The notes below the pieces were generated by a model. That model had not been told where the DNA came from and did no database searches. It saw only the letters and a list, made by a program, of their open reading frames with translations. Below, one piece after another: positions 1,700 to 42,778 of a stretch of DNA of 64,000 bases. This DNA comes from Candidatus Nomurabacteria bacterium (GTDB taxonomy: Bacteria > Patescibacteriota > Patescibacteriia > HK-STAS-PATE-3). Position numbers and translations under genes: made by a program. The stretch is from the NCBI GenBank assembly GCA_023898465.1, contig CP060223.1:1-64000 (forward strand), given 5' to 3'. How positions within the stretch are numbered: the first letter of the stretch is position 1; each line of letters opens with the position of its first letter.

Positions 1700-1744
1700 A
1701 GAAAAGAAAAGGCCCCGCTCTGTAGCTTGTACAGAAGCGGGGCC
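1700..1744 (-). terminator. rho-independent terminator (GC hairpin plus T-tract on minus strand)
   Basis: ggccccgctctgtagcttgtacagaagcggggcc forms an inverted repeat. On the minus strand it is followed by ttttcttttc. It lies just downstream of the stop of the 1774-2247 gene. Confidence 0.5.
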
Positions 1745-1773
1745 ATGGAGCCGGCGTGGGGGAACTACGCCAG

Positions 1774-2247
1774 CTAGTTCGAGGCAAAGGTGCAGAATTG
1801 GGCCAGAGTGCGGTCGGGTGGACCGTCGAGGGGTCGGCGATGCTTGGCGTTGATCTGCAACACCACCTGGCCGTTGTTCGTTCGTAGCCACACTGCCGAA
1901 TTGTTCGGCAACACGGTTTGATCGACCCAGATCACCGCATTGTTGTTGAAGGTGACGACCGGGTAGAACACGAGGTCTTGCTGGTCGGGCTGGGGGATGG
2001 TCAGTGTGACCCGGATCGCTTCTTGCTTGGCGTCCAAGTACACCGACTCGTAGGCCTCGACAACCCGGAAGCTGTCGAGACTGTAGATCCTGCCGATCTC
2101 CGGCTGGAAGCTGGCATCGGACACGTAGACAGTGTGTTCTTGAGTGACGTGGCGGGGCAGCAGCCAGTGGCTGACGAGACCGCCGACGAGCAGTGCAGCA
2201 ATGCCGAAGACGATCACTTTCGGCCAATCCGTGGTTCCATGTGACAC
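1774..2247 (-). CDS. hypothetical membrane-anchored protein (visibly GC-rich gene)
   Basis: GTG start at 2247, preceded by AAGGAGG at 6-nt spacing. One hydrophobic segment (VIVFGIAALLVGGLVSHWLL). A TTGACA-17-TAGTAT promoter on the minus strand sits at about 2344-2315. Third codon positions are G/C-rich, unlike proB next door. Confidence 0.5.
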   Translation of the reverse strand: MSHGTTDWPKVIVFGIAALLVGGLVSHWLLPRHVTQEHTVYVSDASFQPEIGRIYSLDSFRVVEAYESVYLDAKQEAIRVTLTIPQPDQQDLVFYPVVTFNNNAVIWVDQTVLPNNSAVWLRTNNGQVVLQINAKHRRPLDGPPDRTLAQFCTFASN

Positions 2248-2468
2248 GACGAACCTCCTTGTTTGTCCATGTGGAGCGAATTTGCACAGCGCAAATCGCC
2301 TTATGAAAGAACGACCCATACTAGCGTAAATCGGGCTTTTTGTCAACCCCACACTAGATTCGCTGCGAGATCAACCCTGTACCAGACTTAGTATGAGGCT
2401 AAGCTTAGCAGTATAGGACTTGGCAAAAGAGATGCTAATGTGTAAGTATAAAGGCATCCGTTACAGAC

Positions 2469-2635
2469 CCCACTGCCGACGGGTGACTCCGGCGCTTCGG
2501 AGGGCAGTGGGTGGCGAGGAGACTCCGAAGCGCCACAAGTTTCATTGATCTTTAGCAGCACGTTCGACCCCTCACTGTCGGCCAGCGGCTCGGGGTACTC
2601 CAGCGACAGTGAGGACAGCGCCCCTGGAGTACCCC
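2469..2635. ncRNA. candidate structured RNA: two tandem H-type pseudoknots (identity unknown)
   Basis: Pseudoknot 1: 2469-2477 pairs 2503-2511 (9 bp), interleaved with 2491-2502 pairing 2523-2534 (12 bp). Pseudoknot 2: 2570-2580 pairs 2604-2614 (11 bp), interleaved with 2592-2603 pairing 2624-2635 (12 bp). All pairs are Watson-Crick. The surrounding 2350-2980 has no credible ORF. Confidence 0.35.
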
Positions 2636-2987
2636 TCCCTTTTCTACGCAGCCCCCACTGCGCCCTGCCCCGTCTCATTTCTCAATCATCCGAGCGAGAA
2701 AGAAGAGGCGGGGCTTTTTCTTACAAAAAAGAGAGGGTACACAGATCCGGTTGTGTACCCTCGTGGCTGTTCTCGCTGTATGCTGAGGCAGATTCGATAT
2801 CCCCTGGTGACTCTCCTGAGCGCAGCAATACTTAGCCTATGGCACGCCCGATGGTAGAGAGTAGGGCGCACGAAAGAAGTATAAAATGGGAAGTGATATC
2901 TGGCAATTTTCTCTTGTGATTTTTTTCACAAGTTGCTAATTTGGGTATAGTCCTTTGATGGATCTCCAATAGCGTAAGGGAGGGAAT

Positions 2988-3296
2988 ATGTTGGGGAGGA
3001 AATGGTCCCTGCAGACCTTGAACATGAACGGAATAGAGGATCCCCACGATAGAGTCGCACACGAAGCGACACAAGATCTGCAGAGTCGACTTGGACACGT
3101 CGGAGTGAGACCTGGAGGGCACACGGAACCGTGCACGCAGATGAGCGCGCAGAGGCAAGGTAACACGATTCGCATCGTGATGCCGGGCGAAGAACGCAGT
3201 ACGGTATTCGTGATCTCGCCGGGACGTGGTAGCACCTTCAGTGCATTACGAGAGCGTTTCCAGACGGCATTCCCGGATGTGGAATTGCAAGAATGA
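2988..3296 (+). CDS. hypothetical protein (102 aa)
   Basis: ATG preceded by AAGGGAGGG at 5 nt. A TTCACA / TATAGT promoter-like pair lies upstream at about 2915-2950. A hairpin-T-tract terminator follows at 3311-3345. Confidence 0.5.
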   Translation: MLGRKWSLQTLNMNGIEDPHDRVAHEATQDLQSRLGHVGVRPGGHTEPCTQMSAQRQGNTIRIVMPGEERSTVFVISPGRGSTFSALRERFQTAFPDVELQE

Positions 3297-3310
3297 GTCA
3301 AACCTAAACT

Positions 3311-3345
3311 TGGCGCGTGGTAATCCATGCGCCTTGTCTTTTTTG
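3311..3345 (+). terminator. rho-independent terminator
   Basis: ggcgcgtggtaatccatgcgcc hairpin followed by ttgtcttttttgc. Confidence 0.5.
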
Positions 3346-3360
3346 CTTTGGAGTATGGCC

Positions 3361-3435
3361 TGGTGCCCCGGGAGGGAGTCGAACCCCCATTAGTGGCTTA
3401 GAAGTCCACAGTTCTATCCGTTGAACTACCGGGGC
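3361..3435 (-). tRNA. tRNA-Arg (anticodon TCT)
   Basis: Reverse complement GCCCCGG-TA-GTTC..GAAC-..CTTCTAA..-GGGGGTTCGACTCCCTC-CCGGGGC-A-CCA gives a cloverleaf with a 7-bp acceptor stem, T-loop TTCGACT and an encoded CCA. There is one A-G mismatch in the anticodon stem. Confidence 0.75.
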
Positions 3436-3523
3436 ACGATTGAAGGTATAGCAGAAGAGGGAAACATTTGGCAATGCATAAAAAAGTAGCCCCACTCCAT
3501 ATTTCAGAAGTGGGGCGCTTCGC

Positions 3524-4915
3524 TTACCGCGAAATGATCAGTTTGGTTGTTTGTTGTTCATCAGGTGTTCGCAAGAAGTACACGCCTGATGGCGACTGCC
3601 TGGAGTCCCAGCTCGCTCCTCCTCGAGTCAGTTCCCCTGACCAGATCTGTCGGCCTTGCGCATCCCAGATACCGAGAGGCAGACTTGCCGCATCGACACC
3701 CTGGGCGAAGATCTGTACTGCACCACGTGATGGGTTTGGATACGCCACGAGTCTGTGCGTCAGCGCGCTCGACGTATCGATTGATGAAACTGGTAGAGCT
3801 GTTGCGGTGGCGCAGAAAAGATCCGCCTGGTTCAGGATTCCATCATAGAATCGTGACCATACCGCAGTCAGCTCATCGCCGGCGACAAAGATGTGTGCTT
3901 CGACATCGTCATCCGTTTCTGTTGCGACAAGCACATCGTCACACCAGGCATTGCCGCCCCACATCTTGAAGGCCACGTCGTAGGAACCAAGACGGAGGTC
4001 CTGCCATGCCACGTAGATGCGACTTTGGCTGCCGGTGGCAATGTGACAGAACTTCGAGTCTTGATCGGTCTCGGTCAATTTCTCCTCGGGATTCCATACG
4101 CCGCCTATACGGCGCTGCATGAAAATCTCGAAATCACCATCTCGCTTGTCGTTGTAGCCGACCAGCAGAGTGTCGCCCATCAAGGCAAGCCGAGGCTGCC
4201 AAGAGTAGGAGGCATCATTGGTGAGTCGTTCCGTCAGTGTGACCGTGCCGTTCAGTAGCGTTGCGTGGTAGATCTCATCGTTGCCATCGCGAGTATCTTG
4301 CCACGCTACATGCACGGTGTCAGCTTCGGCTATCGCATCCGGGTGGGAGGCGTCACCGCTACTATCCGTAATTTGCGTTGGCGTAGACCAGCTTGCTCCA
4401 TTCCACTTGGCGTAGTAGAGCTCGGAATCGGTCGTACTCAGGGTCATGTAGACAACCCCGAATGAGTCGTCCGACTCGAGCACGAGATCAGCATTCACGG
4501 CGTTCACAGTGGCGAAACTGAGCTCGACTGGCGTTGACCAAGTTGAGCCCGCATCAGTGGAGAAGCTGGAGAAGATCTGGAAAAGGTCATCGACCAAATC
4601 CTCCCATACCACGCAGATAGTGCCACCGTTGCTCACTGAGATACAGGGATTCTCTGGATTGCTTCCACCTGCTATCGCCACCTCCGTGACGAGGGTGGTG
4701 CCGTCCAGTTCGCCGTAGTAGATCTCGAGCCCTCCACTTCGCTTGTCGTTCCAGGTGAGGTGCTGGGCACCGTCGGAGCTAGCGTAGGTGTCGAGCTGAA
4801 ATCCAATACTGTCGGCGAAGGTGAGCTGGATGGCTGATCCAAACTCGACCTGTTCGGCAAGGCTGGTCTGCACTACAGCAAGGAGAGCCAAGAAGGCAAG
4901 AAGCAAACGATACAT
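3524..4915 (-). CDS. secreted BNR/Asp-box repeat (sialidase-like beta-propeller) protein with T9SS-type C-terminal sorting domain
   Basis: Start ATG at 4915 (MYRLLLAFLALLAVVQTSLA signal peptide), preceded by AGGAAGGA. Asp-box-like motifs are present (STDAGSTWS, WNGASWSTP). The C-terminus ...YPNPSRGAVQIF...IWDAQGRQIW...SGVYFLRT...KLIISR matches the Por-secretion tail pattern. A terminator hairpin follows at 3490-3520. Confidence 0.75.
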   Translation of the reverse strand: MYRLLLAFLALLAVVQTSLAEQVEFGSAIQLTFADSIGFQLDTYASSDGAQHLTWNDKRSGGLEIYYGELDGTTLVTEVAIAGGSNPENPCISVSNGGTICVVWEDLVDDLFQIFSSFSTDAGSTWSTPVELSFATVNAVNADLVLESDDSFGVVYMTLSTTDSELYYAKWNGASWSTPTQITDSSGDASHPDAIAEADTVHVAWQDTRDGNDEIYHATLLNGTVTLTERLTNDASYSWQPRLALMGDTLLVGYNDKRDGDFEIFMQRRIGGVWNPEEKLTETDQDSKFCHIATGSQSRIYVAWQDLRLGSYDVAFKMWGGNAWCDDVLVATETDDDVEAHIFVAGDELTAVWSRFYDGILNQADLFCATATALPVSSIDTSSALTHRLVAYPNPSRGAVQIFAQGVDAASLPLGIWDAQGRQIWSGELTRGGASWDSRQSPSGVYFLRTPDEQQTTKLIISR

Positions 4916-5049
4916 GCTGAGAGTCCTTCCTTTTGACAATGAACACCCGTAATCTCCGTGATTACGTGTTTGGGGAACATGCAAGATAGCATGTATGTGA
5001 TTTTGGTCAAGCGGTCGACTTTCTTACCCTCATCCTTTACACTATATAT

Positions 5050-5424
5050 ATGCAGCATAAGCAGCGCCATATATACATTCCAACGCTACTCATCATCTTC
5101 TTGCTGATTGCCATTGTACTTTTGTGGCAATTTAGTGAGCCTGAAGCTGATGCCGTCTTTACTAGTGGTGAGGTGATGACACTCCATGGCAAGGTAGCAG
5201 AAAATGTCACTCAGGGCGTAGATGTTGATGCTTCTTCCTATCTTCTCTTAGCGCTTGATGAGGGGAGTGTTGCAAAAGTGGAATATCATCGTGGTGAAGC
5301 TGATTGCGAAAATAGAGTAGATGGCTTTTCTATCAATAAGGGTCAGTCTATCGAGGTCCGGGGTGTGGCAACCAGTCAGGATACAGTGAGCACCTGTGAC
5401 TCAAAAGGTTTCTATATTCGGTAA
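5050..5424 (+). CDS. hypothetical protein with N-terminal membrane anchor (124 aa)
   Basis: ORF with the hydrophobic segment LLIIFLLIAIVLLW. There is no recognisable domain. Confidence 0.4.
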   Translation: MQHKQRHIYIPTLLIIFLLIAIVLLWQFSEPEADAVFTSGEVMTLHGKVAENVTQGVDVDASSYLLLALDEGSVAKVEYHRGEADCENRVDGFSINKGQSIEVRGVATSQDTVSTCDSKGFYIR

Positions 5425-5515
5425 TAGCTCATACTCTTGACTCGTGACCTGGGTAGTGGTATAACACTCAGGCTCTTTTTTATTTGGCAATGACCATGTC
5501 ACATCAGGAGGATAC

Positions 5516-5968
5516 GTGGCAGAAACGCTCAAGATTGCGCTTACCGATGGTGAGCGGCAGGTCGTCGATGCGTTGGGGGTGAGTCCAGCAGTGAATTTCC
5601 TCATCGGCTTGTACGAGGAGATGCAGCAGAGGGGTGCTCGCTCGGTGACGCTGCTCGATGAGCAGAATGAGCCGCATGAGACCTTCGTGCCATTCCTGGT
5701 TCGTCGATCAGGTCTCGAGGGCGACCGTGCCTTCGTTGATGTTCCTCGAGACGATGCGGTGAGTAGGCTGCTGGAGCTGGCTCCTTGCCGGGAAGGTGCG
5801 CCGGAGTCCGAAAGGTTGCGACGTGCGCTGGCCTTGTTCATGCGCATCTGTCGCTGGGTGAAGGAGTCTGGCATCCTGGGCAAGGTTGGTTTGCCGGACA
5901 TGCGGGGCCGGATTCAGCATCAGCTAGACTTGAGCTGGATGCGACCGCTTCTGTCGATCTCGGTCTAG
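5516..5968 (+). CDS. hypothetical protein (150 aa; GC-rich gene)
   Basis: GTG start preceded by AGGAGGA. Third positions are G/C-rich, unlike the neighbours. There is no recognisable domain. Confidence 0.45.
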   Translation: MAETLKIALTDGERQVVDALGVSPAVNFLIGLYEEMQQRGARSVTLLDEQNEPHETFVPFLVRRSGLEGDRAFVDVPRDDAVSRLLELAPCREGAPESERLRRALALFMRICRWVKESGILGKVGLPDMRGRIQHQLDLSWMRPLLSISV

Positions 5969-6059
5969 ACTTCTCTTGACCGAAACAACGGCTCAGTTAC
6001 GACTGGGCCGTTTTCATTTTCCTCTATACAGTAATCCTCTTTTCTTTTATACTATAACC

Positions 6060-6647
6060 ATGCCCAAGAAGCTTGTCGTGACCACCAAAACAGTAGAAGT
6101 ACAAACACCTCCGCCATCAGCGGTAGATGAAGAGCTCTTTGACGAAGAATTTGGTGACGACGATGAGCAAAGCAGCACTGACCCAATGTTCAATCCTGAA
6201 ACTGGGAAGATTGAACAAGTAAATGGTGATGCTACTTTCTTCCAGGATATTGGAGCAGGTCGACAGAGCGAGGATGATAACGGTGCCTGGCTCAATGACG
6301 AGTACACTGGCCAGTTAGCCGTTGATGTATATCAGACTGAGCAGGATATTGTGATCAAGGCGGCAATCGCTGGAGTGCAGTCTGATGATGTAGATATCCA
6401 GGTAACCAACGACATGGTTACGATCAAAGGCGCTCGACGACTGGAGGATGAAGTAACTGATGATCAGTACTTTTATCGAGAATGTTATTGGGGCCGCTTC
6501 TCCCGTACCATAATTTTACCGGTTGATGTACGGAGTGATAAAGTTTCGGCCACTATTAAAAACGGAATACTAAGCGTTCGCCTGCCTAAATCTGAACCCT
6601 CGAAGGTGACAGTGGTAAGCGTGAACGACGAGGACACAGAGGGCTAA
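6060..6647 (+). CDS. small heat shock protein, Hsp20/alpha-crystallin family
   Basis: Alpha-crystallin domain features are present (IKAAIAGV..., GILSVRLPK). ATG at 6060 lies 9 nt after a TATACT -10-like hexamer and has no SD. Confidence 0.85.
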   Translation: MPKKLVVTTKTVEVQTPPPSAVDEELFDEEFGDDDEQSSTDPMFNPETGKIEQVNGDATFFQDIGAGRQSEDDNGAWLNDEYTGQLAVDVYQTEQDIVIKAAIAGVQSDDVDIQVTNDMVTIKGARRLEDEVTDDQYFYRECYWGRFSRTIILPVDVRSDKVSATIKNGILSVRLPKSEPSKVTVVSVNDEDTEG

Positions 6648-6707
6648 TCAGGCGTAGATGGGGGAAGGAGCGAGGCCACTCTGCTGGCCCATTTTTTTCA
6701 CCTAAAT

Positions 6708-8534
6708 ATGGCAAAGAAGAAAGAAGAGAAAAAAGAAAAGCAACACACGCGGACCTGGATCAAACCTCTTGTCTTTACCTTGTCTGGCATCTTTTTATTT
6801 CTTCTCATCGTCGGACTCAGCCTTGTTTGGTTGCAGCAAGCCTATGCACAGAAGTTTTATCCGGGAGTGCATATTGGTGCAACTTCAGTCAGTGGGCAAA
6901 GCTATCTGGACGTGCTAACTCGATTGGAACGTTATAGTGAATCAGTGGAGAGCGATGGGGTGGAGTTTATCTATCAAGACACTAGGGTAAATGTCACTCC
7001 TTCCGTTTTAGCCACCTCAGATCCCGACCTCGCCGTTTCACTTTTCAGTTTTTATGTTGAGCCAACAGTCCAAGCAGCTTACGCGCATGGTCGCTCAGGC
7101 ACGTACTGGCAAAACACCATGACGCAGATACGTTCCTTTGTATTTGGCTACCATGAAGCTCTGCAATACGAGGTGGCAGACGAAACACTGCAGGGATTGT
7201 TAGAGGAGAGTTTCGCAGCATATGAGACAGCCGCACAGGATGCGCAGCTAGAGGTGAATGAAGCGCATACACTTATTGTGGCCCCTGAGGAAGCAGGTGA
7301 AACATTAGCCTATAGCGATGCAATAGTAATGATGAAGCAAGCTTTTGTTAAACAAGAAAGTCGTATTGAAATTGCGCTTGCAGCAAAATCAGTTGCCCCC
7401 CGCTATACCAGCGCTGATCTGCAACCCTTGTTACCTTCAGCTGAGCAGCTCCTTACTCACGCGCCATTTATTCTACATTCATCCGATGGTGACAATGAAA
7501 TAAGTAAAGAAGAATTAGCTCCTTGGCTTATTGCGCGTCCGGCTACGGTTGGAGTGCTATTAGAAGTGAGCGCAGAACGGGCTGATGAGTTTTTTACCAC
7601 ACTGGCTGAGCAGATTGATGAAGCGCCGCAAGAAGGTCGCTTTGCTATTAGCGATGGAGTGGTCACAGAAACGCAGCCGGGCAAAGAGGGTCGTAGCTTA
7701 GATCGAGAAGCGACTGCCCAGGCCATGACACAAGCATGGATTCAAGAGGGTGTGCAAAGCGCTGAAGTGGTTATGAAAGTGCAAGAGCCACAAATTACCT
7801 CAGATGCTACCGGGCCACTACAAAACCTCCAACTTCTTGGCACTGGTCATTCTAATTTTGCCGGAAGTCCAAACAATCGACGACATAACATCCAAGTTGG
7901 AGCTGATAGCGTGAACGGTGTAGTGGTGATGCCGGGCGAAGAATTTTCTTTAGTAAACATCCTCGGACCAATTGAGAAAGAAACAGGTTACTTGCCGGAG
8001 CTGGTAATTAAGGGCGATAAGACGGTGCCGGAGTATGGCGGCGGACTTTGTCAGATCGGGACTACTGTTTTCCGCGCAGCCATGGCTACCGCTCTACCAA
8101 TTACTGAGCGGCGAAACCATTCGTATAATGTGAGTTATTATTTAGAGAATGGTTTACCCGGCACAGACGCGACTATCTATCCAGCTCATCCGGATTTACG
8201 TTTTGTAAATGATACCGAAAACCCCATCCTTATTCAGAGCAGGATAGAAGGTAATGACATTTACTTTGATTTCTGGGGTAAGTCCGATGGTCGATCAGCA
8301 GTACGTACTACGCCAGAAGTATGGGGGTGGACTGATCCGCCGCCAACCAAGGAGATTGTGAGCACTGATTTAGCACCTGGCCAACGCAAGTGTACAGAGC
8401 GAGCGCATAAGGGTGTGAAGACGCAATTCACCTATACCATCACCTATCCCGACGGACATCAGGAGGAGAAGGTGTTTCAAAGCACCTATAAGCCTTGGCA
8501 AGAAGTGTGTCTGGTAGGCCCTTCTGAAACCTAG
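6708..8534 (+). CDS. VanW family protein with N-terminal TM segment
   Basis: The C-terminal region YGGGLCQIGTTVFRAAMATALPITERRNHSY...GTDATIY is VanW-like. There is an N-terminal hydrophobic anchor. Confidence 0.8.
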   Translation: MAKKKEEKKEKQHTRTWIKPLVFTLSGIFLFLLIVGLSLVWLQQAYAQKFYPGVHIGATSVSGQSYLDVLTRLERYSESVESDGVEFIYQDTRVNVTPSVLATSDPDLAVSLFSFYVEPTVQAAYAHGRSGTYWQNTMTQIRSFVFGYHEALQYEVADETLQGLLEESFAAYETAAQDAQLEVNEAHTLIVAPEEAGETLAYSDAIVMMKQAFVKQESRIEIALAAKSVAPRYTSADLQPLLPSAEQLLTHAPFILHSSDGDNEISKEELAPWLIARPATVGVLLEVSAERADEFFTTLAEQIDEAPQEGRFAISDGVVTETQPGKEGRSLDREATAQAMTQAWIQEGVQSAEVVMKVQEPQITSDATGPLQNLQLLGTGHSNFAGSPNNRRHNIQVGADSVNGVVVMPGEEFSLVNILGPIEKETGYLPELVIKGDKTVPEYGGGLCQIGTTVFRAAMATALPITERRNHSYNVSYYLENGLPGTDATIYPAHPDLRFVNDTENPILIQSRIEGNDIYFDFWGKSDGRSAVRTTPEVWGWTDPPPTKEIVSTDLAPGQRKCTERAHKGVKTQFTYTITYPDGHQEEKVFQSTYKPWQEVCLVGPSET

Positions 8535-8547
8535 GGCTATTGACCGT

Positions 8548-8576
8548 CTTAATTTCGTGTGTTATATAAGTAGCTC
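8548..8576 (+). promoter_or_regulatory. sigma70-like promoter (TTGACC-17-TATATA)
   Basis: Near-consensus hexamers at the canonical spacing. It would drive the roughly 250-nt unit that ends at the 8793-8832 terminator. Confidence 0.4.
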
Positions 8577-8792
8577 GAACTTTTGAGCTGCTAGTGTCGT
8601 GTTGTGCGGAAAGTCTATCCAGCGGGTTTACCCTAGCTGCATAGGTGATCCGCTCGCGCATGTGCGGCTCAACTTTGTCGGAGAGCGGATTGGGTTAGAT
8701 CTGGAAAAAGTCTCGGCTTCTAGCCGGCAGTATGAAACTATAGCCCGTAGAGGTGGAGACGAACACTCTGAGCCTCCGCTCTCCTTTTCTCA

Positions 8793-8832
8793 CCGGCCAT
8801 TGGCGTAGTCCATTGGCCGGTTTTCTTTTTTG
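8793..8832 (+). terminator. rho-independent terminator
   Basis: ccggccattggcgtagtccattggccgg hairpin followed by ttttcttttttg. Confidence 0.5.
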
Positions 8833-9151
8833 TATATGCAAAAAGACCGCACATCTCAGGACAAGAAAATGTTTCTATGGTGTGAGATAGGAGGGGGGAC
8901 CCACCTCATCCAGGGGAAACATTCCCATGCTTGTCGTGTCCTGAGATGCGCGGCCGCTTTGTAAAGTCCGCTACTGCTAGCGTGACTTAGGAGGATAGCA
9001 TAGGACTTCTGGCTTGTCAAGACTTACCCTTCACATCCCATATGAAAAGGGAAAAACCCCCAAAAAATCGATTTTTTTCGTTGACGAGACTAGTATTTCC
9101 TGATACAGTTTTGAAGCTACATATCATTGAAAGCAACAAGGAATCAAAGGC

Positions 9152-10159
9152 ATGACGATTCAAGAAATATATGATTTGGCTATTCGTTTAGCCATTAAGA
9201 ATGACCTCAGGGGTGAAAAACATGTCCGTCATAAGTTAAAGCGGGCAAAAGAGCGTTATGAAAAAATGTCAGGCGATGCAAAAAAGTTTTATGATAAGGA
9301 GCAGCTAGAAAATCCCTATAGCGATACCCGATCCTATGCACTTGAGCCAAATCGACAGGTGAAGCGGATTTTGGCAGGCATTGATGTCGAGGAAGGTGAA
9401 ATCCTGGCAGCGAACGAGCTCTCAAAGGAAAAGCCAATCGATTTAGTTATTTCTCATCACCCAATTGGACATGCCCTGGCCGGTTTGCACGAAGTCATGC
9501 ATATGCAGGCGGAGATCCTGGCCCTTTATGGTATTCCTATCAACGTCGCCGAGAGCGTGCTCTCAGTGCGGGTAAATGAAGTTTCTCGTAAATTAAATCC
9601 AGTTAATCATAGCCAGGTCGTTGACATTGCGCGCTTACTAAAAGTGAACGTCATGTGTTTGCATACGGCAACTGATAATTTGGTAGCAAACCACATGTTT
9701 AGTTTAGTGAAACGTAATGAGAAGAAACTGGAAACCGTGGGTGATGTGATGGACATGTTGTTTGAAGAGTATCCTGAATACGCTGAGGCAAAAAAGATAA
9801 AAGCTGGTCCGATGCTTTTCGCCGGGTCTCGTGATCGCTTAGCTGGTAAAATTGCCGTTACCGAAGTGACTGGTGGAACCGAGGGCAATCCAAAGATATA
9901 CGAAAAAGCTGCTCAAGCTGGAATCGGCACTATCATCGGTATGCACATGAGCGAAGAGCATAAGAAAGAAGCGGAGAAGAATCACATTAATGCAATTATT
10001 GCCGGCCACATGTCCTCTGACTCAATTGGTTTGAATCTTTTCCTAGACGAGTTAGAAAAGCGAGGAGTTGAAGTCATTCCTTTCGGTGGCCTCATCCGGG
10101 TTCGTCACTACACGCCTCGCAAGAAGCGCGTCGCAACTACTCGCCGACGTAAGAAATAA
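9152..10159 (+). CDS. Nif3 family dinuclear-metal protein (GTP cyclohydrolase 1 type 2 homolog)
   Basis: Motifs [19 protein letters not shown] and AGHMSSD match the Nif3 metal-binding pattern. A TTGACG-17-TACAGT promoter lies upstream. Confidence 0.8.
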
Positions 10160-10161
10160 TA

Positions 10162-11196
10162 GTGTCATCGCCCATGCCCGCAGAACGATTAGTGGGAGCG
10201 CAGGATAAACCCGAGGACGTCAGTCTCGATCTTACTCTCCGCCCAAAAAACCTCACCGAGTACATTGGTCAGGACAAGGTGAAGAAGAACCTCGGCATTG
10301 CCTTGCATGCTGCGAAAAAACGCGAGCAAGTTTTAGAGCACGTGCTGCTGCACGGCGCGCCCGGACTTGGGAAAACAACCTTGGCACATATCATTGGCCA
10401 TGAGTTAGGTGTGAATGTTCGCATTACTTCAGGTCCGGCTCTGGAGCGGGCTGGAGACCTGGCGGCAATTCTTACCAATCTCCATGACGGTGATGTTCTT
10501 TTTATAGATGAGGTACATCGACTCCATCGTACCATCGAAGAGGTGCTTTATCCGGCCATGGAGGAGTATCGACTGGATATTGTCATTGGGAAAGGTCCGT
10601 CAGCTCGGACAGTGCGCCTGGACCTGCCAAAATTTACCTTAGTGGCTGCAACTACCCGAGTGAGTTTACTTTCCTCACCGCTTCGTGATCGTTTCGGCAT
10701 GGTCTATCGATTAGAGTATTATGGCCCTGAAGATATTGAACACATTATTCAGCGTTCAGCCGATTTACTTGGAGTCATACTTGAGCCCGCAGCCGCGAAA
10801 GCAATCTCGGCCCGGGCGCGCCGCACGCCACGTATTGCCAACCGGCTCCTGAAGCGAGTTCGCGACTATGCTGAGGTGCATGCTGATGGGAATATTAATG
10901 AAGCAACAGCGATTGAAGCAATGAAGCTGATGGATATTGATGAGTTGGGTTTGGATGATGTCGATCGACGCATTCTCGAAACCATTATCGAGAAGTTCAA
11001 CGGTGGTCCGGTGGGTTTAAGCTCGGTTGCTGCATCAATTGGCGAAGAAGTGGATTCACTTGAAGAAGTATATGAGCCATATTTACTCCAAGTTGGCTTC
11101 CTTGCCCGTACACCCAGAGGTCGATTGGTAACCAAAGCGGCTTATCTGCATCTTGGCTTACCAGTCCCCAACGAAGGTCAGGCAAGTCTGGTATAA
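10162..11196 (+). CDS. ruvB: Holliday junction branch migration ATPase RuvB
   Basis: Walker [10 protein letters not shown], sensor regions and a winged-helix C-terminus are present. The start is ambiguous between GTG at 10162 and ATG at 10174. Confidence 0.9.
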
Positions 11197-11203
11197 TAGT
11201 CTT

Positions 11204-11437
11204 ATGGAAATCTCCTACATTGTCCTCTTCTATATCTACGTCGGACTCGTAGGTCTCTACGTGTTGTTTGCCTTTTTTGATTTATTTCATGTGGTGCGTT
11301 TCGGTATGTGGAATTTCACCACTACGACGGTGACCTTTCTTTTTATTGCCGGTTCAGTGCTGATACTCTTTGTGAGTTTCCAATGGTTAAGTCAGGTTGA
11401 TTGGACTCAGGTTATTACTCTTCGTTTAAATAATTAG
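11204..11437 (+). CDS. small two-TM membrane protein (77 aa)
   Basis: ATG MEISYIVLF... with two hydrophobic helices. It sits immediately upstream of the bPH2 protein. Confidence 0.4.
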   Translation: MEISYIVLFYIYVGLVGLYVLFAFFDLFHVVRFGMWNFTTTTVTFLFIAGSVLILFVSFQWLSQVDWTQVITLRLNN

Positions 11438-11439
11438 CT

Positions 11440-12063
11440 ATGGAAGCAGAGCAACTACCAAATGCACAGCCAAACGAGGAAATCATTTTACTCTTGCGAC
11501 GACATCCTTGGATTATTATTCGTCATTTTCTCTACTTCCTCTTCTTAGCTGGGATTGGCGTAGCAGCTCATGCCTTATTACGTTATGTTGACCCGAGTTG
11601 GTTAAATGAGCAGGATGACATTCGTATGATCCTCGTGACTATTGGCACCAGCGTGTACGGTTTAGCTATTTGGCTTTTCCTTTTTACTGGTTGGCTGGAT
11701 TACTATCTCGACGTCTGGATTCTTACTAATCAGCGAGTTATTAGCATGGAGCTACGAGGACTTTTTGCGCGAGCGACTGCTGAGCAGCATATTGGACGAG
11801 TGCAAGATGTTTCCAGTATTCAGCAGGGGAAGTTAGCTACCTTCCTTAACTTCGGCCATGTGCAGATTCAGACCGCCGGAAGCGAAGTGGTCTTTGTGTT
11901 TGAGGAAGTGCCGAATCCTGAATACGTGGCGCGTCGCGTTTTGCAAGCGCATGATCAGTGGATGCAATCACATCCACACCGGGCAGAGCAAATGACTCAA
12001 GAGGCTCGGGCGGGTATGAGCATTCGAAACGAAGCCTCACCAAAGTCGGGAACCAAGAAGTAG
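11440..12063 (+). CDS. membrane protein with bacterial PH (bPH2/DUF304, YdbS/YdbT-like) domain
   Basis: Two N-terminal TM helices followed by a PH-like region (WILTNQRVI...GHVQIQTAG). Confidence 0.6.
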   Translation: MEAEQLPNAQPNEEIILLLRRHPWIIIRHFLYFLFLAGIGVAAHALLRYVDPSWLNEQDDIRMILVTIGTSVYGLAIWLFLFTGWLDYYLDVWILTNQRVISMELRGLFARATAEQHIGRVQDVSSIQQGKLATFLNFGHVQIQTAGSEVVFVFEEVPNPEYVARRVLQAHDQWMQSHPHRAEQMTQEARAGMSIRNEASPKSGTKK

Positions 12064-12104
12064 TCTTTCATAGACTGAGTATTTGACATACCCGCAGGTA
12101 TTTT

Positions 12105-12365
12105 TTAGTATATCGTCGCGATCACTACTGGTCGCATAAACCGAGGAGGTGCTTCATGCGCCGCTTCGCGCAGGTCGCCGTGATCTAACCTAGCGCCGAA
12201 CGGGGCGTCGCTGCCTTCGTGCAGTGGCGAGGTCTCGGGCCGAGCTTTGTCCCTCCGATATGCTCGCGCCAAATCACGTGTCCGTCGTGTATTAGGACAA
12301 CTCCGTCAGGAGTACGACCAAATAGGACAGCGTACACGACCGTTGTCCTTTTTCATTTTTTGTAA
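12105..12365 (+). ncRNA. orphan transcription unit: promoter, SD plus 10-codon mini-ORF, GC-rich RNA, terminator
   Basis: TTGACA-17-TAGTAT promoter at 12085-12113. GAGGAGG lies 6 nt before ATG (MRRFAQVAVI stop). A GC-rich segment follows, then the hairpin ggacagcgtacacgaccgttgtcc plus tttttcatttttt. Confidence 0.3.
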
Positions 12366-12371
12366 ATTGTA

Positions 12372-14252: not shown

Positions 14253-14333
14253 GGTATTACTATTGTACTGATCCGAGGCGGTCCTTGTCCAACTTATTTG
14301 CCTAGTTCATATTTGTGAGTATACTTTGGCAGT

Positions 14334-15368: not shown

Positions 15369-15428
15369 GAAAATAAAAGACCCGCCTAAGGCGGACCTTT
15401 TATTTTTATACGCATGTGTGGAGAGCGT

Positions 15429-18173: not shown

Positions 18174-18530
18174 TATGTCGTTCTTTCGAAGGATTCAAGA
18201 ATGGCAAATCCATCAAGATACACAGGATCCAGTTAAGCTGGTCTTACGAGCTTTTACAACTTATATAAGTGCTCTCAATAACTTGGCCGATAAAATATAT
18301 CGAGCAAGTGACCCCAGATCAGGCAAGAAGCGTAATACATCTTCCCACTAGGCAATTTTTTTAAGTATGCTATGCTAGGCCTGGTCGTCAAAGGCTCTGT
18401 TTTGCCGACCACTGAACCTTTCACGAATCCAAGGAAATGGTCCCCCCATGTACCGCGGGTACGTGAAAGACCGTTGCTGGACAACACGCCCATTCACTGG
18501 ATGGACGTGCTTACCTTAGGGGTTGGAATG

Positions 18531-18701
18531 AAGAAAGTCCTGTTGCTCTTTGGGGTACTCGCGCTGATGGCACTTCCGTCGGGTCCGGTTCGAGCCGGCG
18601 AGGACGAGGAGGAGGTGCTCATCAGAGCGAAGTTCCCCGTGGACTTCATGGTTCAGGTCGAGTTGGTACGAGGCCTCTCCTTCATTGGGCTGGTAGGCTA
18701 G
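18531..18701 (+). CDS. putative small secreted peptide (57 aa; GC-rich)
   Basis: Internal ATG MKKVLLLFGVLALMALPSGPVRAG is signal-peptide-like. AGGGG lies upstream. A bidirectional hairpin follows at 18730-18760. Confidence 0.3.
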   Translation, partial: KKVLLLFGVLALMALPSGPVRAGEDEEEVLIRAKFPVDFMVQVELVRGLSFIGLVG

Positions 18702-18768
18702 CCTGAGAAGGTCGTACCTCAAGTTCCCCCATGGGTCATCTGACTCATGGGGGCCTTTTACATCCGAA

Positions 18769-23403: not shown

Positions 23404-23550
23404 GTAGTTAAAATATTGTCTTACCCTACTAGTACAATCTATTTACCCCAGCTCTTTCATGTGTCAAAAAGTAGCGTATTGACCTAAGTGTCAAAGCGCT
23501 ATACTGTTCTCATATTCATCAATCCTTGTCTCTAACCATTGGGAGGGAAG

Positions 23551-23829
23551 ATGCGAGAGATGGATGACTTCGAGGCTGGGTTGCGTGACTGGGCGAGTCG
23601 CGTCATTGCCAGCGCTGGAACGCATCGGCCGGAGGATGAGCGCTTCGACGGCGAGTTCACGGAGTACACTGCCTGGAAGGCGCTGCTGCACCCGCATATG
23701 CACATGTTTGGCATGAGCGGCGTGCAGCTGGTCCTGGATACCTGGGACGTGCAGACTGATGCCACGCATGGAATCGTCCTCGAGATGATGAGCTTCCTCC
23801 AGGAGCAGTCAGCTGGTGTTTCAGCCTAA
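23551..23829 (+). CDS. hypothetical protein (92 aa; GC-rich solitary gene)
   Basis: TTGACC-17-TATACT promoter at 23480-23508. GGGAGGG RBS. A terminator hairpin gacgctcgg...ccgagcgtc plus T-tract follows at 23833-23870. Confidence 0.45.
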   Translation: MREMDDFEAGLRDWASRVIASAGTHRPEDERFDGEFTEYTAWKALLHPHMHMFGMSGVQLVLDTWDVQTDATHGIVLEMMSFLQEQSAGVSA

Positions 23830-23886
23830 ACGCGACGCTCGGACCTTTATGGCCCGAGCGTCTTTCTTTTGCTTGCTATAGGTTAT

Positions 23887-24518: not shown

Positions 24519-24605
24519 TGGTGGGCGAGGAGAGACTTGAACTCTCACGGAATTACTTCCACACGGCTCTGAACCGTGCGCGTCTACCAATTCCGCCACT
24601 CGCCC
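24519..24605 (-). tRNA. tRNA-Leu (anticodon CAG), class II with long variable arm
   Basis: Reverse complement GGGCGAG...CACGGTTCAGAGCCGTG...long variable arm...GAGAGTTCAAGTCTCTC CTCGCCC A CCA. Confidence 0.8.
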
Positions 24606-38177: not shown

Positions 38178-39158
38178 TCACGCTGGTTTAATAGTCCAGC
38201 CTTGAGGGGTTTCAATAATAGTGCCCGGGGTGGTGAAGCCGGCTGCTTTGACGTGCCCGCCGCCGCCATACTCGGCTGCCATTTTGGAGACGTCGACGCC
38301 CTCCTGAGTGGTGCGATAACTTCCGCTAATGAGGCCATCAGGTAGCTCTTTTAAGAAAAAGGCAGCCTTAGCATCATCTAGTCCATTGAGGAAGTTAGCA
38401 AAGCCATCAACCGCATCAACATCCACACCACATTCGAGGAAGTCTTTTTGAAAAAGTGCAGTTGAGATAATGCCAGTTTCCACATTGCGTTGTAGGCGAC
38501 TAAGGGCAATGCCCCAGAGTCGCAGCATAGCCAGAGACTTATTCTTCAGAGTACCATCGTTGATTTCTTTTAAGACCGCGCCCCGTTCAAGTAATTCAGC
38601 TGCCGCGCCCATGGCACTTGGTGTAGTTGCGAGATTCGCAAATCCTCCCGTGTCAGTCAATATCCCGGTAAGTAAACTCGTGGCCATTGCTCGTGTGATG
38701 GGTGCGCCTACGTGCGTAAGGAAGGAATAGATCAACTCAGCAGTTGAGGAAGCCTGGACATTGATGTGGGCGTGATCAACTACGTTACGACCCTCGTATT
38801 CCAATCGGGTGGGGTGGTGGTCAATGCAGACGACTTGTGCTTTTTTCTCACCTTTTAACAATAGCTCAGTTGCTTGTGTGCGCTTCACATCACCAATATC
38901 AAGTAGGACGATCACGTCAAAGTCTTGCGTGCGCAAATCATCTGGATTTGAACTGATACGCTGGATATCTAAAAAGTCGAAGTAGGGTGCTGGACGATCA
39001 TTACTAAAACAAAGGTGTGACTTTCCCATTTGTTCAAGGTAATGACTTAATCCCAACATTGCGCCGATTGCATCACCGTCTGGGCGCTCATGGGCGGTCA
39101 GGAGGATATGACGCGCGTTTTGGAGCAGCGCTTGTAATTTGGGGGCAAAGTATTCCAT
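38178..39158 (-). CDS. DHH/DHHA1 family phosphoesterase (NrnA-like oligoribonuclease/pAp phosphatase)
   Basis: HERPDGDAIGA and DHH (IDHH) motifs, with a DHHA1-like C-terminus (GGGH). Confidence 0.75.
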   Translation of the reverse strand: MEYFAPKLQALLQNARHILLTAHERPDGDAIGAMLGLSHYLEQMGKSHLCFSNDRPAPYFDFLDIQRISSNPDDLRTQDFDVIVLLDIGDVKRTQATELLLKGEKKAQVVCIDHHPTRLEYEGRNVVDHAHINVQASSTAELIYSFLTHVGAPITRAMATSLLTGILTDTGGFANLATTPSAMGAAAELLERGAVLKEINDGTLKNKSLAMLRLWGIALSRLQRNVETGIISTALFQKDFLECGVDVDAVDGFANFLNGLDDAKAAFFLKELPDGLISGSYRTTQEGVDVSKMAAEYGGGGHVKAAGFTTPGTIIETPQGWTIKPA

Positions 39159-39173
39159 AGAAAGCCCCTGACT

Positions 39174-39518
39174 CTACTCTTTCTCAGCAATGTCGTCAAG
39201 GAGTGACTCAACGCGAAACGCTTTCTCCTCGGTATAGTCGATATGAAACTCAATGTGTGGGACAAATTTCATTACCAGTTTTCGATTGAGATAGTGCTGC
39301 AGTTCGCCGCGCTGTTGGCTAAGGATTTTTTCAACTGCTTCCACTTGCTCGATTGGCAGCACTGAAATCCAAACCCTGGTGACGCTTAAATCCACCGCAG
39401 TGTCCACCTTGGAAATAGTCACAATCGTACCCAAAGGGAACTCAACAAGCCGCTTCATGAGCTGGCCGAGCTCTGTCGTAATGAGCGCGTTTACTTTCGC
39501 TATTCGGTCTCCGGGCAT
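39174..39518 (-). CDS. rbfA: ribosome-binding factor A
   Basis: 114 aa with the RbfA KH-like pattern. It sits immediately downstream of infB. Confidence 0.85.
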   Translation of the reverse strand: MPGDRIAKVNALITTELGQLMKRLVEFPLGTIVTISKVDTAVDLSVTRVWISVLPIEQVEAVEKILSQQRGELQHYLNRKLVMKFVPHIEFHIDYTEEKAFRVESLLDDIAEKE

Positions 39519-39519
39519 T

Positions 39520-41319
39520 TTAGGCGCCTAAAGTTTTTTTACGTGTTTCCTCAGTGTAGAACTCAAGCGTGTCGCCCTCAGCGACAATTGGCTCGCCTTC
39601 ATAGCGGACACCACATTGACCGCCAACACTTACTTCATTCACTACACGCTTTTCAATCTTCACTTGCTTGGCGGTGCCAGTGCCAATACTTTCATCGTTA
39701 CGCTTCACTCGGATTAGCACATCCGGCACTGCTTTGCCTTTAGTAACCTCACCACCCACAATCATGGCCTTGCGTTCAGTTCGGAAGATGGCCAGCACCT
39801 TCATTGCACCAATTTCAGTCACAATAACTTCTTGACTCAATTGTGATTCAGCCTCAATGCGGACCGCGGCGACCAAGTCATAGATAATACTGTAGTGTTC
39901 AATCGCAATATCTTTTCCTTTGGCAACTGCTTCGGCAGATGGAGTGGCGTCAACGTTGAAGCCATAGAGCTTGGCTTTACTTGTTTCTGCTGCCAGGACA
40001 TCAGCCTCAGAGATATTTCCTAATCCTTTGTGAATCACTCGCACAGCTACCTCTTCATTCTGGAGTTTTTCAAGCGCGCCAACAATTGCTTCGAGTGATC
40101 CAAGTGTATCAGCCTTCACCACCACCGGAATAATAGTAGCCGCATGTGTTCCTTCACTTTCCACTAAGGTATGGGAAGCGCTGACTTGCGCTGGAGCTTG
40201 GTTCTTTAACTGATAGCTCTTCACTCGTTTTTTCACGTCGCTTAAATCAGTAACGGCCTGGAGGATGTCACCAACCGCTGGTGCACCTTTCAATCCAATA
40301 ATTTTGGCCGGGGTAGCTGGCGCAGCTTCGCTTAAGCTTTTTCCACGATAGTCTTTGAGTGCTTTAATCTTTCCATACACATTTCCAATCGTGACTTGGT
40401 CGCCGCGGTGCAGCGTACCTGATTGCACGAGTACGGTAGCCACTGGACCTTCGCCCGGGTCAATGTGTGATTCGATAATCGTTCCAATTGCTAAGCGATC
40501 TGGGTTCGCACGTAGGCGATCCTTTTGTAAGTCAGCCACTAAGAGCACCATATCAAGTAACTCTGGAATACCTTGGCCGGTCTTGGCTGATACAGGTGCC
40601 ATCACTACATTACCGCCCCAGTCCTCAGCTTGTACTTCCTGCTCAGCCAAACCCTGTTTTACTCGCTCCAGATTCGCTTCAGGTTTATCAATTTTGTTAA
40701 TAGCTACAACAAAAGGCAGATTGCTCGCTTTAATAATTTTCAAAGCCTCAAGAGTCTGAGGCTTCACGCCATCGTCAGCAGCAACAACTAGGATTGCTAC
40801 ATCGGCTACACGGGCGCCACGTGAACGCATGGCACTAAAGGCTTCATGGCCTGGGGTGTCAATAAAGGTAATCGCGCGTTCCTTATCAATTACTTGATAC
40901 GCACCAATGCTTTGGGTGATACCGCCAGCTTCTTTTTCCGCTACATTTGTTTCACGGATTTTATCGAGCAACAGAGTTTTACCATGATCAACGTGACCCA
41001 TCACCACAACGACCGGTGGACGCACCTTCAATTTCGAAGCCTCTTCCTTATTTGCATTTTCAAGAGCGCTCAGGTCCTGTGCATTGCTCTCTTGTGCTTC
41101 TTTCTCAGTGCTTACATTAAATTCCGCAGCAATAATTGAGGCAGTATCAAAATCAATCCGTTCGTTTTGACCGGACATGATGCCATTTTTCATGAGTTCA
41201 GCAATGACGCGGGTGACTGGGACTTCTAGCTTTTCAGCTAAATCCTTAATCACTACCGTCTCAGGAAGTGTGATGTTTTTTTCTTCGCTTGCTGGAGCTG
41301 GGCTTGTTGCTGTGTCCAT
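39520..41319 (-). CDS. infB: translation initiation factor IF-2
   Basis: G-domain motifs GHVDHGKT and DTPGH, with IF-2 C-terminal domains. 599 aa. Confidence 0.9.
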
Positions 41320-41447
41320 AGTGTACCCAAGAGTAAATCGACTGCCCCCAAATTTGTTAGCGTTAGGTCAGGCGCAGTGTACAATGTTCAATGCGTCTTG
41401 TCAATAAAAAAGCCCGCAATCGCTAGCTATTTTATTAAGATATTTTT

Positions 41448-41862
41448 TTACCTTTGACTCCGAGCAATTGCTACCGCAAAAATGGCCACCACCGTAAACA
41501 GCGAGAGCAGCATCCAATATCCTAAGCGTTTGCTAATGCTGCCAGCTTGGGTGGATTGTGCGTGATGTAATTGTACGGTGATCACTTGTCCGGCCAGGAC
41601 AGCCTCCATGACGATCAAGCCCATTTTTATGAGAAAGGTGGGAGAGCTCAAGGCCTTAGAGAGATAGGGAATAACTAAGGCGATTCCGCTGAGAATTGTT
41701 ATTCCTGCGATGAAAAAACCTAAGCGTCGAGTTTGTACTAAACGATCTAGTCTCTCTGCACTCAAATTTCGCGGCATGGCCAGGATAACGGTGAAGAACA
41801 CCACACCAAGTAAAAGTCCGGCACCAATGATATGAATAATAACTAGGAGAGTATGTAACATA
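41448..41862 (-). CDS. hypothetical polytopic membrane protein
   Basis: Four hydrophobic helices. The ATG at 41862 is preferred over the longer track ORF. Confidence 0.4.
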
Positions 41863-41940
41863 TTGAAACCTAAGAATGAGACGCGTATAGTATAAGGGTG
41901 CTTTTGCATGAGTACAAGCAAGCAATAAGGAGGTGTACTC

Positions 41941-42402
41941 ATGGTGATGGCAGTAGGTGCTGCAGTTTCGCTCCTTGAGAGCTTGATTGAGAAAGCGCGA
42001 CAGCAGGGGTGGCTCGTCTATCGTCACGATCTACAATGGGACGATAGCGTCTACGCCCAGATCGTCGATTTCATAGCATCGCTCGGTTCAGCGACCTTGC
42101 CGACGTGTTTGTGCATCCCTATGCATGAGGGTCGGATGCTGCTGGGTATCCCATGTGATGCGGAGCCTGAGATGATTTGTCATCTGCAGTATATGGATGA
42201 TATGGAGCGCGACGTATTGTCCATGCTGCTTGAGGAGCTGGGTTTGCACGAGCACGCGGCCGATCGGACATCCGTAGTGATCCAATTTGCTGTCGATGTG
42301 GAAGTGACCGACGGTCAGACTGTGCGCAAGGAGGTGACACATCGCTGGAGGGTGGCGGACCAGTCTACTTGGGAAGAATGCCTTAGCGACGCTCTTGCAT
42401 AA
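41941..42402 (+). CDS. hypothetical protein (153 aa; GC-rich solitary gene)
   Basis: AAGGAGG RBS at 6 nt. Terminator hairpin gacgc...gcgtc plus T-tract at about 42375-42415. Confidence 0.45.
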   Translation: MVMAVGAAVSLLESLIEKARQQGWLVYRHDLQWDDSVYAQIVDFIASLGSATLPTCLCIPMHEGRMLLGIPCDAEPEMICHLQYMDDMERDVLSMLLEELGLHEHAADRTSVVIQFAVDVEVTDGQTVRKEVTHRWRVADQSTWEECLSDALA

Positions 42403-42778
42403 AGGGCGTCGTTTGCTTTTCTTGACAGTTTTGGTTATCAGATTTAGGCTAACCTTGAGGCATGAAAGTCTTGAAGGCAGGTGTTCGGCTTGTTCCGGAA
42501 TCACTGACCGAATAGGCAAAAGGGTTGCTCCCAGACCAGTAGCTAAGGTTCGATGTACACGTACATTCCTCTACAGAGAGGTGTTGCGCTAAGTGCGCGA
42601 TTACTACGTGAAACCTCACCCTGCATCTGGGGAGGTGCCGAAGCTCTGGGCGTCACCATTTGGTGTGCGCGGTAGTGTCTCACTTCATGGGGGTCAGCAT
42701 TTCGATGTCTGGCCCCCTTTCCTTTATATACACAAAACCCCGCGTGTGCGAGGTTGTTTGTGTATCACCCTTAGGTGA

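Follow-up and report, generated by a model that had tools for sequence, protein, structure and literature searches.

Five small GC-rich orphan genes with their own expression signals in a Nomurabacteria genome, and their probable separate horizontal acquisition

The DNA analyzed here (the window) comprises the first 64,000 nucleotides of contig CP060223.1, part of a 1,082,586-bp single-contig metagenome-assembled genome (MAG) named "Candidatus Nomurabacteria bacterium" (locus tags H6760_000xx, proteins USN5355x-USN5360x). The best matches of its TypA protein, at 65-72% identity, are to Magasanik-, Komeili- and Doudnabacteria and other Patescibacteria MAGs, confirming its placement in the Patescibacteria, or candidate phyla radiation (CPR). 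Genomes of this group are tiny and rich in hypothetical genes, and the route by which these symbionts gain new genes is poorly known. The window, with an overall GC content of 0.479, contains five short open reading frames (ORFs) of deviating GC content, designated o1 to o5, which encode proteins of 57-157 aa (Table 1). They offer a clean and checkable case of orphan genes under selection, equipped with expression signals of their own.

The initial annotation had described the five as small genes with strongly G/C-biased third codon positions, and this was borne out. The GC content at third positions (GC3) was 0.61-0.78, compared with 0.451 ± 0.059 (maximum 0.572) for a backbone set of 42 genes, drawn from gene calls on identical Logan contigs and from long ORFs with NCBIfam or Pfam matches. 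All five ORFs lie above the backbone maximum (z = 2.7-5.7), with an excess of 0.25-0.33 for o1 to o4 and 0.16 for o5. Total GC is nearly uniform, at 0.59-0.60, in four of the five. The preferred third base varies by unit, o1 being rich in C (0.49) and o2 in G (0.46). The share of Lys among Lys and Arg residues, K/(K+R), is 0.15-0.27 in o1, o2, o4 and o5 and 0.50 in o3, compared with 0.47 in the backbone.

Sequences for comparison were three contigs from two relatives, found via 90%-identity clusters of the flanking proteins. Relative 1 (SRR17818317, contigs L071 and L062) shares 87-90% nucleotide identity with the window, and relative 2 (SRR32105342, contig L120) has a TypA with 92% amino acid and 79% nucleotide identity. 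Loci anchored on TypA in GTDB genomes and JGI metagenomes reached at best 72% TypA identity, lacked synteny, and were too distant for site comparison.

Each of the five ORFs shows codon-position periodicity (permutation p < 2e-4), with the signature GC1 > GC2 < GC3. The ratio of nonsynonymous to synonymous divergence (dN/dS) is 0.30 for o1, 0.25 for o2 and 0.22 for o4; for the flanking proB, HSP20, VanW and a 124-aa gene it is 0.02-0.07, measured against relative 1. On the strength of the periodicity in all five and the dN/dS values in three, the five ORFs are real protein genes, and they are lineage-restricted (ORFans). None belongs to a Pfam, PHROG or PADLOC family, in agreement with the lack of recognizable domains noted in the initial annotation.

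We also considered an artefact, in the form of an assembly chimera, contamination, or spurious ORFs drawn over GC-rich structured RNA. In favor of an artefact are the MAG origin of the sequence, the conflicting strand calls of gene callers in the islands, and the omission of the 57-aa o3 from the NCBI annotation. Short-read Logan/ENA contigs from four samples (SRR12358676, SRR23493594, SRR14234116, ERZ28655839), however, match the window at 100% over positions 1-15968, 20532-24598 and 34270-52402. These identical contigs cover o1, o2, o4 and o5 with their flanks, several short ones cross o4 or o5 plus flanks, and o5 is present in identical copies in all four samples. Orthologs stand in place in the two relatives, the dN/dS of o1 is lowest in the annotated frame of all six, and periodicity is significant in all five ORFs. 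In an Rfam search over the window only seven tRNAs pass the gathering threshold, and no family overlaps any of the five. The suggestion that the scaffold might be compositionally chimeric is therefore rejected, since the four-sample contigs are identical in the regions covered and relatives hold o1, o2 and o4 in place; artefact in general we regard as barely credible.

The disagreement between gene callers has a concrete example. Long antisense ORFs are present in every island, and on L071 the gene caller annotated an antisense ORF (291-761, -) over the true o1 ortholog (354-827, +). Because of this call, protein databases lacked the o1 ortholog, and o1 gave the impression of a singleton. Islands that are GC-rich and open on both strands invite such antisense miscalls, and the practical lesson is that a single one, in one relative, hid a true ortholog from protein-level searches.

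Expression signals, which the initial annotation had ascribed to all five units, are present with one exception. A hairpin plus U-tract lies within 60 nt 3' of each ORF (ΔG -18 to -26.5 kcal/mol, z -3.5 to -5.3 compared with shuffled sequences). A simple terminator scanner flags three of the five, the chance of three in five 60-nt windows being about 1e-3 as estimated from hit density. A sigma-70-like promoter and a strong Shine-Dalgarno (SD) sequence precede four of the ORFs, with near-consensus boxes and a 17-nt spacer in o1, o2 and o5. The 15-nt spacer of o4 is suboptimal, yet both boxes and their spacing are kept in L120. The exception is o3, for which no promoter was recognizable and the SD sequence is weak; its start lies at 18528 and not, as previously listed, at 18531.

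Table 1. Positions, signals, composition and silent divergence of the five units and of other GC-rich genes in the window (GC1/GC2/GC3, GC content at codon positions 1, 2 and 3; GC3 z, relative to the backbone set; TM, transmembrane; T9SS, type IX secretion system)
Feature	Position	Strand	Description	GC1/GC2/GC3	GC3 z	Silent-codon difference, gene vs flanking
o1 cassette	1700..2346	-	-35 TTGACA 2346-2341; -10 TAGTAT 2323-2318 (17-nt spacer); SD AAGGAGG 2260-2254			
o1 ORF	2247-1774	-	GTG start, 157 aa; N-terminal TM helix, then beta-rich domain	0.61/0.39/0.78	5.7	21% vs 25%, not significant
o1 terminator	hairpin 1744-1711, T-tract to about 1700	-	fold and T-tract			
o2 cassette	5437..6025	+	-35 TTGACT 5437-5442; extended -10 TGgTATAAC 5457-5465; 17-nt spacer; SD AGGAGG 5506-5511			
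o2 ORF	5516-5968	+	GTG start, 150 aa	0.68/0.42/0.70	4.2	13% vs 25%, p = 0.003
o2 terminator	hairpin 5987-6012 and T-tract	+	fold and T-tract			
o3 island	18433..18766	+	334-nt GC island			
o3 ORF	18528-18701	+	57 aa; signal-peptide-like N-terminus MKKVLLLFGVLALMALPSGPVRA, then 34-aa acidic/hydrophobic tail	0.69/0.31/0.76	5.2	
o3 terminator	hairpin 18726-18753	+	fold			
o4 cassette	23479..23871	+	-35 TTGACC 23479-23484; -10 TATACT 23500-23505 (15-nt spacer); SD GGGAGGG 23541-23547			
o4 ORF	23551-23829	+	92 aa, pI 4.6	0.65/0.41/0.74	5.0	30% vs 53%, p = 4e-4
o4 terminator	hairpin 23834-23862 and T-tract	+	fold and T-tract			
o5 cassette	41863..42422	+	TTGAAA-17-TATAGT 41863-41891; SD AAGGAGG 41927-41933			
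o5 ORF	41941-42402	+	153 aa, pI 4.5	0.65/0.38/0.61	2.7	
o5 terminator	hairpin 42385-42413, overlapping the stop codon, and T-tract	+	fold and T-tract			
por companion gene	3524..4915	-	463-aa secreted protein; weak BNR-like match; Por_Secre_tail (T9SS-type C-terminal sorting) domain (Pfam)			25% vs 25%, not significant
Two membrane-protein genes	53461..55757	+	overlapping stop/start; 450-aa and 314-aa multi-pass proteins; GC3 0.72 and 0.70			

The setting of the units between lower-GC housekeeping genes held in part. The flanks do include core genes, and several of the neighbors are small membrane or hypothetical proteins. Nor are all the units solitary: o1 sits inside a GC-rich block of 3.3 kb (1653-4911) that also contains a hairpin-dense non-coding stretch, a tRNA-Arg gene and the GC-rich gene of a secreted protein, and o5 is followed by further GC-elevated DNA and a "3D-domain" gene.

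Two observations concern transcription at the edges of the units. The proB start codon (1673, -) lies about 30 nt past the T-tract of the o1 terminator, a layout kept in relative 1. This gap leaves no space for a normal promoter, and proB-proC may rely on read-through or attenuation at the o1 hairpin, or on a weak promoter overlapping it. Downstream of o2, the sequence at 6025-6062 suggests that the HSP20 gene is leaderless, with a TATACA-17-TATACT promoter-like site ending at 6053 and the ATG of the relative's call at 6060.

The predicted products differ in location. The o1 protein appears to be membrane-anchored; its AlphaFold2 (AF2) model shows a TM helix and strands at low confidence (pLDDT 52) and is not usable. 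From its sequence, o3 resembles a Sec signal peptide with a 34-residue tail and is probably secreted, and o4 and o5 would be small acidic cytoplasmic proteins. For o2, AF2 predicts a beta-alpha-alpha unit twice in one chain, in one confident model of five (pLDDT 76.8, pTM 0.74; the other four ≤51). Matches of this model in BFVD include CopG/ribbon-helix-helix (RHH) proteins. A Foldseek search of the PDB gave nothing significant (best E = 0.78), and neither a Pfam RHH family nor an RHH sequence profile matched. As modeled, o2 may thus be a tandem RHH DNA-binding protein, a lead that applies to o2 only.

At orthologous sites in the relatives, o1 and o2 are present in relative 1, and o4 is present and o3 absent in L120. 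The o1 ortholog is intact on L071 and the o2 ortholog (P0002 on L062) is 89% identical with synteny kept; in both, promoters, SD sequences, stops and terminators are conserved at the same positions, and neither ORF contains an indel. Within o1 the substitutions concentrate in the TM/linker region, and within o2 in the N-terminal half, the rest of each protein being almost invariant. The o4 ortholog, beside Cyt-b5 in L120, has 78% amino acid identity and a GC3 of 0.72. Around it, the window and L120 align (83%) from the -35 box to the terminator hairpin only, with an almost identical 5' UTR; beyond the unit the left neighbor differs, and the right neighbor shares 41% amino acid identity. In L120, 184 nt separate TypA from the orthologous membrane-protein gene at the o3 site; the spacer in the window measures 595 nt and includes the 334-nt GC island, which shows that o3 is present in the window genome and absent from L120.

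In the nearest relatives, o1, o2 and o4 are thus kept in synteny under purifying selection, and they are confined to a narrow lineage. The conservation argues that they are neither fresh insertions nor junk, and the narrow distribution that they are not the conserved syntenic core genes that, according to the initial annotation, would have refuted its reading.

An ABC-ATPase/MacB-permease pair (21353-23394), located between a cupin gene and o4 in the window, is absent in L120, where the cupin gene and o4 are adjacent (L120 1824-1945). Its absence places the breakpoint of an indel or rearrangement right at the o4 cassette.

Silent divergence was scored as the share of same-amino-acid codons for which the two genomes use a different codon, and compared with the flanking backbone by the Fisher test. 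It was reduced in o2 and o4, and at the backbone level in o1 and in the por gene of the o1 block (Table 1). Plain amelioration of an imported gene to host composition should speed up silent change rather than slow it down. The low values of o2 and o4 would fit either exchange after the strains split or constrained silent sites.

Constraint is the core of a rather unlikely alternative, in which the five are native lineage-specific genes whose GC-rich silent sites are actively maintained, for mRNA structure or stability, for a dual RNA and protein function, or for avoidance of AU-specific endoribonucleases. The reduced silent divergence of o2 and o4 and the synteny of o1, o2 and o4 fit this explanation, as does the GC3 of o4, which is 0.72-0.74 in two lineages whose core genes are near silent saturation, and its almost invariant 5' UTR. 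However, selection on RNA does not predict the large excess of Arg over Lys in four of the five proteins, and the same odd constraint would be needed in five unrelated proteins. Moreover, the silent divergence of o1 is not reduced, o3 is missing in one relative, and homologs are lacking at the other Patescibacteria loci examined.

Sequence searches gave little beyond the nearest relatives. The proposal that the five form a family of small accessory genes was dismissed in the sense of a paralog family, since the best E value in an all-against-all BLASTP among them was 1.9; BLASTP also found no paralogy with other GC-rich ORFs. At the DNA level the units have only chance 9-11-mers in common, and no terminal inverted repeats (TIR) or target-site duplications (TSD) flank any of them, so that the hallmarks of insertion sequences (IS) or miniature inverted-repeat transposable elements (MITE) are lacking. 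Among 5.8e9 protein clusters, o1 and o5 match only themselves and o2 matches one near relative, and in a HMMER search over 1.84e9 representatives o4 matches its own cluster only. No homolog of the five was found in any other Patescibacteria locus examined.

Several specific origins were tried. An origin from phages was rejected for lack of PHROG, IMG/VR or INPHARED matches; the IMG/VR scans covered o1, o2, o4 and o5, with three further scans for larger GC-rich genes, and were negative. A tblastn search of the five concatenated proteins against INPHARED phages and PLSDB plasmids gave no match, and a plasmid origin was rejected on the PLSDB result. For defense systems, PADLOC returned only a chance-level Cas11d match for o4 (E = 0.003). 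Three of the five units lie within about 1 kb of a tRNA gene, but with seven tRNAs in 64 kb this association is not significant (rough p about 0.07).

The units could also be dispersed remnants of one degraded integrated element, such as a prophage, an integrative and conjugative element (ICE) or a plasmid, from a GC-richer source. The near-equal GC content of four of them would be explained in this way, and three further features are compatible with it: the o2 model resembles relaxosome or regulatory RHH proteins such as TraY and VirC2, a Xer-type integrase gene stands beside tRNA-His with other deviant-GC islands in the window, and a rearrangement breakpoint adjoins o4. We nevertheless consider a single element distinctly improbable, as the units lie 3-18 kb apart with core genes between them (including proB, RuvB, QueA, TypA, PNPase, RNase Y and IF-2), C3 and G3 usage is unlike between units, and neither PHROG matches nor structural or replication genes were found.

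The GC-rich block around o1 also contains DNA of another kind. Two GC-rich "ORFs" predicted there by a gene caller (2388-2678 and 2988-3296) show no codon periodicity and are probably non-coding. The stretch at 2388-2762 (-), with a GC content of about 0.58, lies between a terminator (2762-2733) and the o1 promoter and is hairpin-dense (fold z -3.8); one gene caller placed a 96-aa ORF in it. It is 92-96% identical to relative 1, compared with 69-85% in nearby 100-nt stretches, and matches no Rfam family. Permissive Rfam thresholds over 2250-3000 and 42400-42800 likewise gave nothing credible. We regard 2388-2762 as a candidate structured non-coding RNA or hairpin array. In the same block, the por gene (GC3 0.63) is conserved in L062 with a dN/dS of 0.12, and a protein with a Por_Secre_tail domain is unexpected in a Patescibacteria genome.

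Aperiodic GC-rich stretches of this kind, and the long antisense ORFs of the islands, are what emergence de novo would draw on, with chance long ORFs in GC-rich non-coding DNA being recruited later. We judge this to be very improbable. A GC2 of 0.31-0.42 alongside a GC3 of 0.61-0.78, and the Arg-rich usage, indicate that these ORFs have long been coding under GC pressure, and L120 has no homologous non-coding sequence at the o3 site. Emergence de novo also merely shifts the question to the source of GC-rich DNA in a 48% GC genome.

The best fit is the independent micro-insertion from a high-GC donor that the initial annotation had proposed, amended in that these are established genes under selection, some of them shared with relatives. 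It is supported by the GC3 excess, the predominance of Arg over Lys in four proteins, the lack of homologs and of shared DNA, and the o3 indel. In this reading, to which we give somewhat better than an even chance, the five ORFs were acquired separately from a pool of about 58-62% GC and kept as self-contained transcription units between resident genes. The direction of the deviation favors import, because it is opposite to the AT bias that arises from local mutation or AT-rich spacers, and because so strong a deviation toward GC, being beyond the reach of local processes in a genome of 48% GC, points to a pool of about 60% GC.

Entry of the cassettes would be via DNA uptake, followed by illegitimate or flank-guided recombination; uptake is suggested by a TfoX-like competence regulator (TfoX_N) and a pilus-type ATPase (T2SSE) encoded in the window. 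Movement or exchange of cassettes between related strains may have continued once these had split, which would explain why the silent divergence of o4 and o2 is about half that of flanking core genes. The cassettes would have been retained for useful accessory functions of mixed type, the mixed predicted locations of the five proteins arguing against one common function.

Several points weigh against separate import. Neither a donor, a homolog nor mobility machinery was found, so that import rests on composition and one indel. The relatives sampled are two only, represented by three short contigs; none covers the o5 site, which leaves o5 with no comparator, and o3 lacks both a promoter and a comparator carrying it. 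The absence of o3 from L120 could be a deletion. The low silent divergence of o2 and o4 was scored on 127 and 63 codons and could equally reflect silent-site constraint, while that of o1 and por is at the backbone level, indicating that these two genes are ancestral in the two strains, with no sign of later exchange. Finally, o4 has a GC3 of about 0.73 in both lineages though core silent sites are near saturation (TypA dS about 2.3); if o4 is ancestral, this points to maintenance of GC and not to a fading foreign signature.

An extension of separate acquisition, possible but in our view unlikely, is that related Nomurabacteria share a circulating pool of self-contained GC-rich single-gene cassettes, passed on through DNA uptake and recombination with no part played by phages or by a dedicated recombinase. 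For ultra-small symbiotic bacteria, such cassettes would be the chromosomal equivalent of the morons of phages. Their high GC content would be the signature of the bacterial host or the host's mobile elements, or would be actively maintained; the reduced silent divergence of o4 and o2, together with the boundaries of o4 conservation from -35 box to terminator, would be footprints of the traffic.

Other parts of the window also deviate in composition. A four-gene operon at 52 kb had been said to share the flavor of the five units, and this applies to its two large membrane-protein genes (GC3 0.70-0.72) but not to the two ORFs upstream (0.53-0.55). The membrane-protein genes have no Pfam, PHROG or PADLOC family and no IMG/VR relative. 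An island of the opposite type spans 46792-49799, in which a PIN_12-domain gene (47498-48487; GC 30%, GC3 0.24) lies beside tRNA-His (48746-48820) and a Xer/phage-integrase-family gene (48846-49799). Taken with the GC-rich units, this AT-rich island indicates that the window holds foreign-looking DNA of both low and high GC.

Around o5, about 340 nt of GC-elevated DNA (42440-42780) separate its terminator from the "3D-domain" gene (GC3 0.54) and contain no credible ORF. A terminator-like hairpin lies at 42755-42736 (-), with a fold z of only -2.0, and Rfam matches in this stretch are sub-threshold only. On the other side, an ORF listed at 41448-41942 (-) with 164 aa probably starts at 41871 (MLHTLLVII...), which would shorten the product to a membrane protein of about 141 aa. 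The divergent o5 promoter overlaps the start region of this ORF, which the Logan gene caller did not call.

Other Patescibacteria loci, scanned crudely over about 200 kb, yielded only about four GC3 outliers of a comparable kind, as against at least nine in the 64-kb window, a comparison that is not rigorous. One, on the contig L011 (40% GC, backbone GC3 about 0.34), is a stand-alone 234-aa ORF (8518-9222, +) with a GC3 of 0.64 and no Pfam domain. It lies directly downstream of TypA, in a position like that of o3, and is not homologous to o3. GC3 outliers may thus be a more general phenomenon that is denser in the window.

A GC bias opposite to that of classical ORFans, and beyond local mutation bias, bears on the debate over whether ORFans are imported or invented. 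Should the GC signature trace back to the symbiont's host, or to mobile elements of that host, cassettes of this type could be of use in identifying the hosts of uncultured CPR bacteria.

Compared with known systems, the likeness of o2 to TraY and VirC2 (tandem RHH proteins of the Arc/MetJ/CopG superfamily) lies in the predicted double beta-alpha-alpha unit in one chain; o2 differs in lacking an RHH profile match and a relaxase or partner gene nearby. Integron cassettes, including those with a solitary attC, resemble the five units as small orphan single-gene ORFs with a 3' imperfect inverted repeat. The units differ in having their own promoters, a 3' hairpin plus T-tract (an intrinsic terminator), unrelated 3' elements and no array. 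No IntI gene was found near them, the only tyrosine recombinase being the Xer-like one more than 6 kb from the nearest unit, and no dedicated attC model was run.

Horizontally transferred ORFans, or single-gene islets, share with the five ORFs a short length, lineage restriction, the lack of homologs, an atypical composition, and purifying selection weaker than in core genes (dN/dS 0.2-0.3 vs 0.02-0.12). In the classical picture, ORFans have a higher AT content than the rest of their genome, and local mutation pressure is another way in which such a bias can arise (PMC12315717; PMC3514957). The five ORFs deviate in the opposite direction, with GC3 about 0.16-0.33 above the backbone, and two of them (o2 and o4) are less, not more, silently diverged than core genes.

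The closest parallel is the phage moron, defined as one ORF that brings its own promoter and terminator, is inserted between two genes, deviates in composition and shows no recognizable recombination site (PMC4378225). As in the concept of Hendrix and Juhala, the five units each consist of one ORF equipped with a sigma-70-type promoter and a factor-independent terminator, save that no promoter was recognizable for o3. Both kinds of unit stand between two resident genes, differ in composition from their neighbors, and show no recognizable recombinase target or repeat. In contrast to morons, the five lie in the chromosomal backbone of a CPR bacterium, flanked by proB, HSP20/VanW, TypA, an ABC transporter with Cyt-b5, and IF-2, and three of the four comparable units are shared with relatives, variable presence being seen for o3 only. 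With a moron-like layout in a chromosomal core setting and no phage signal, they appear to work like morons without being members of the class, and are best filed as horizontally acquired ORFans that are moron-like but outside a prophage. This is a known kind of system, mildly surprising in two respects: its bias runs toward GC, and low silent divergence goes together with boundaries as sharp as those of a cassette.

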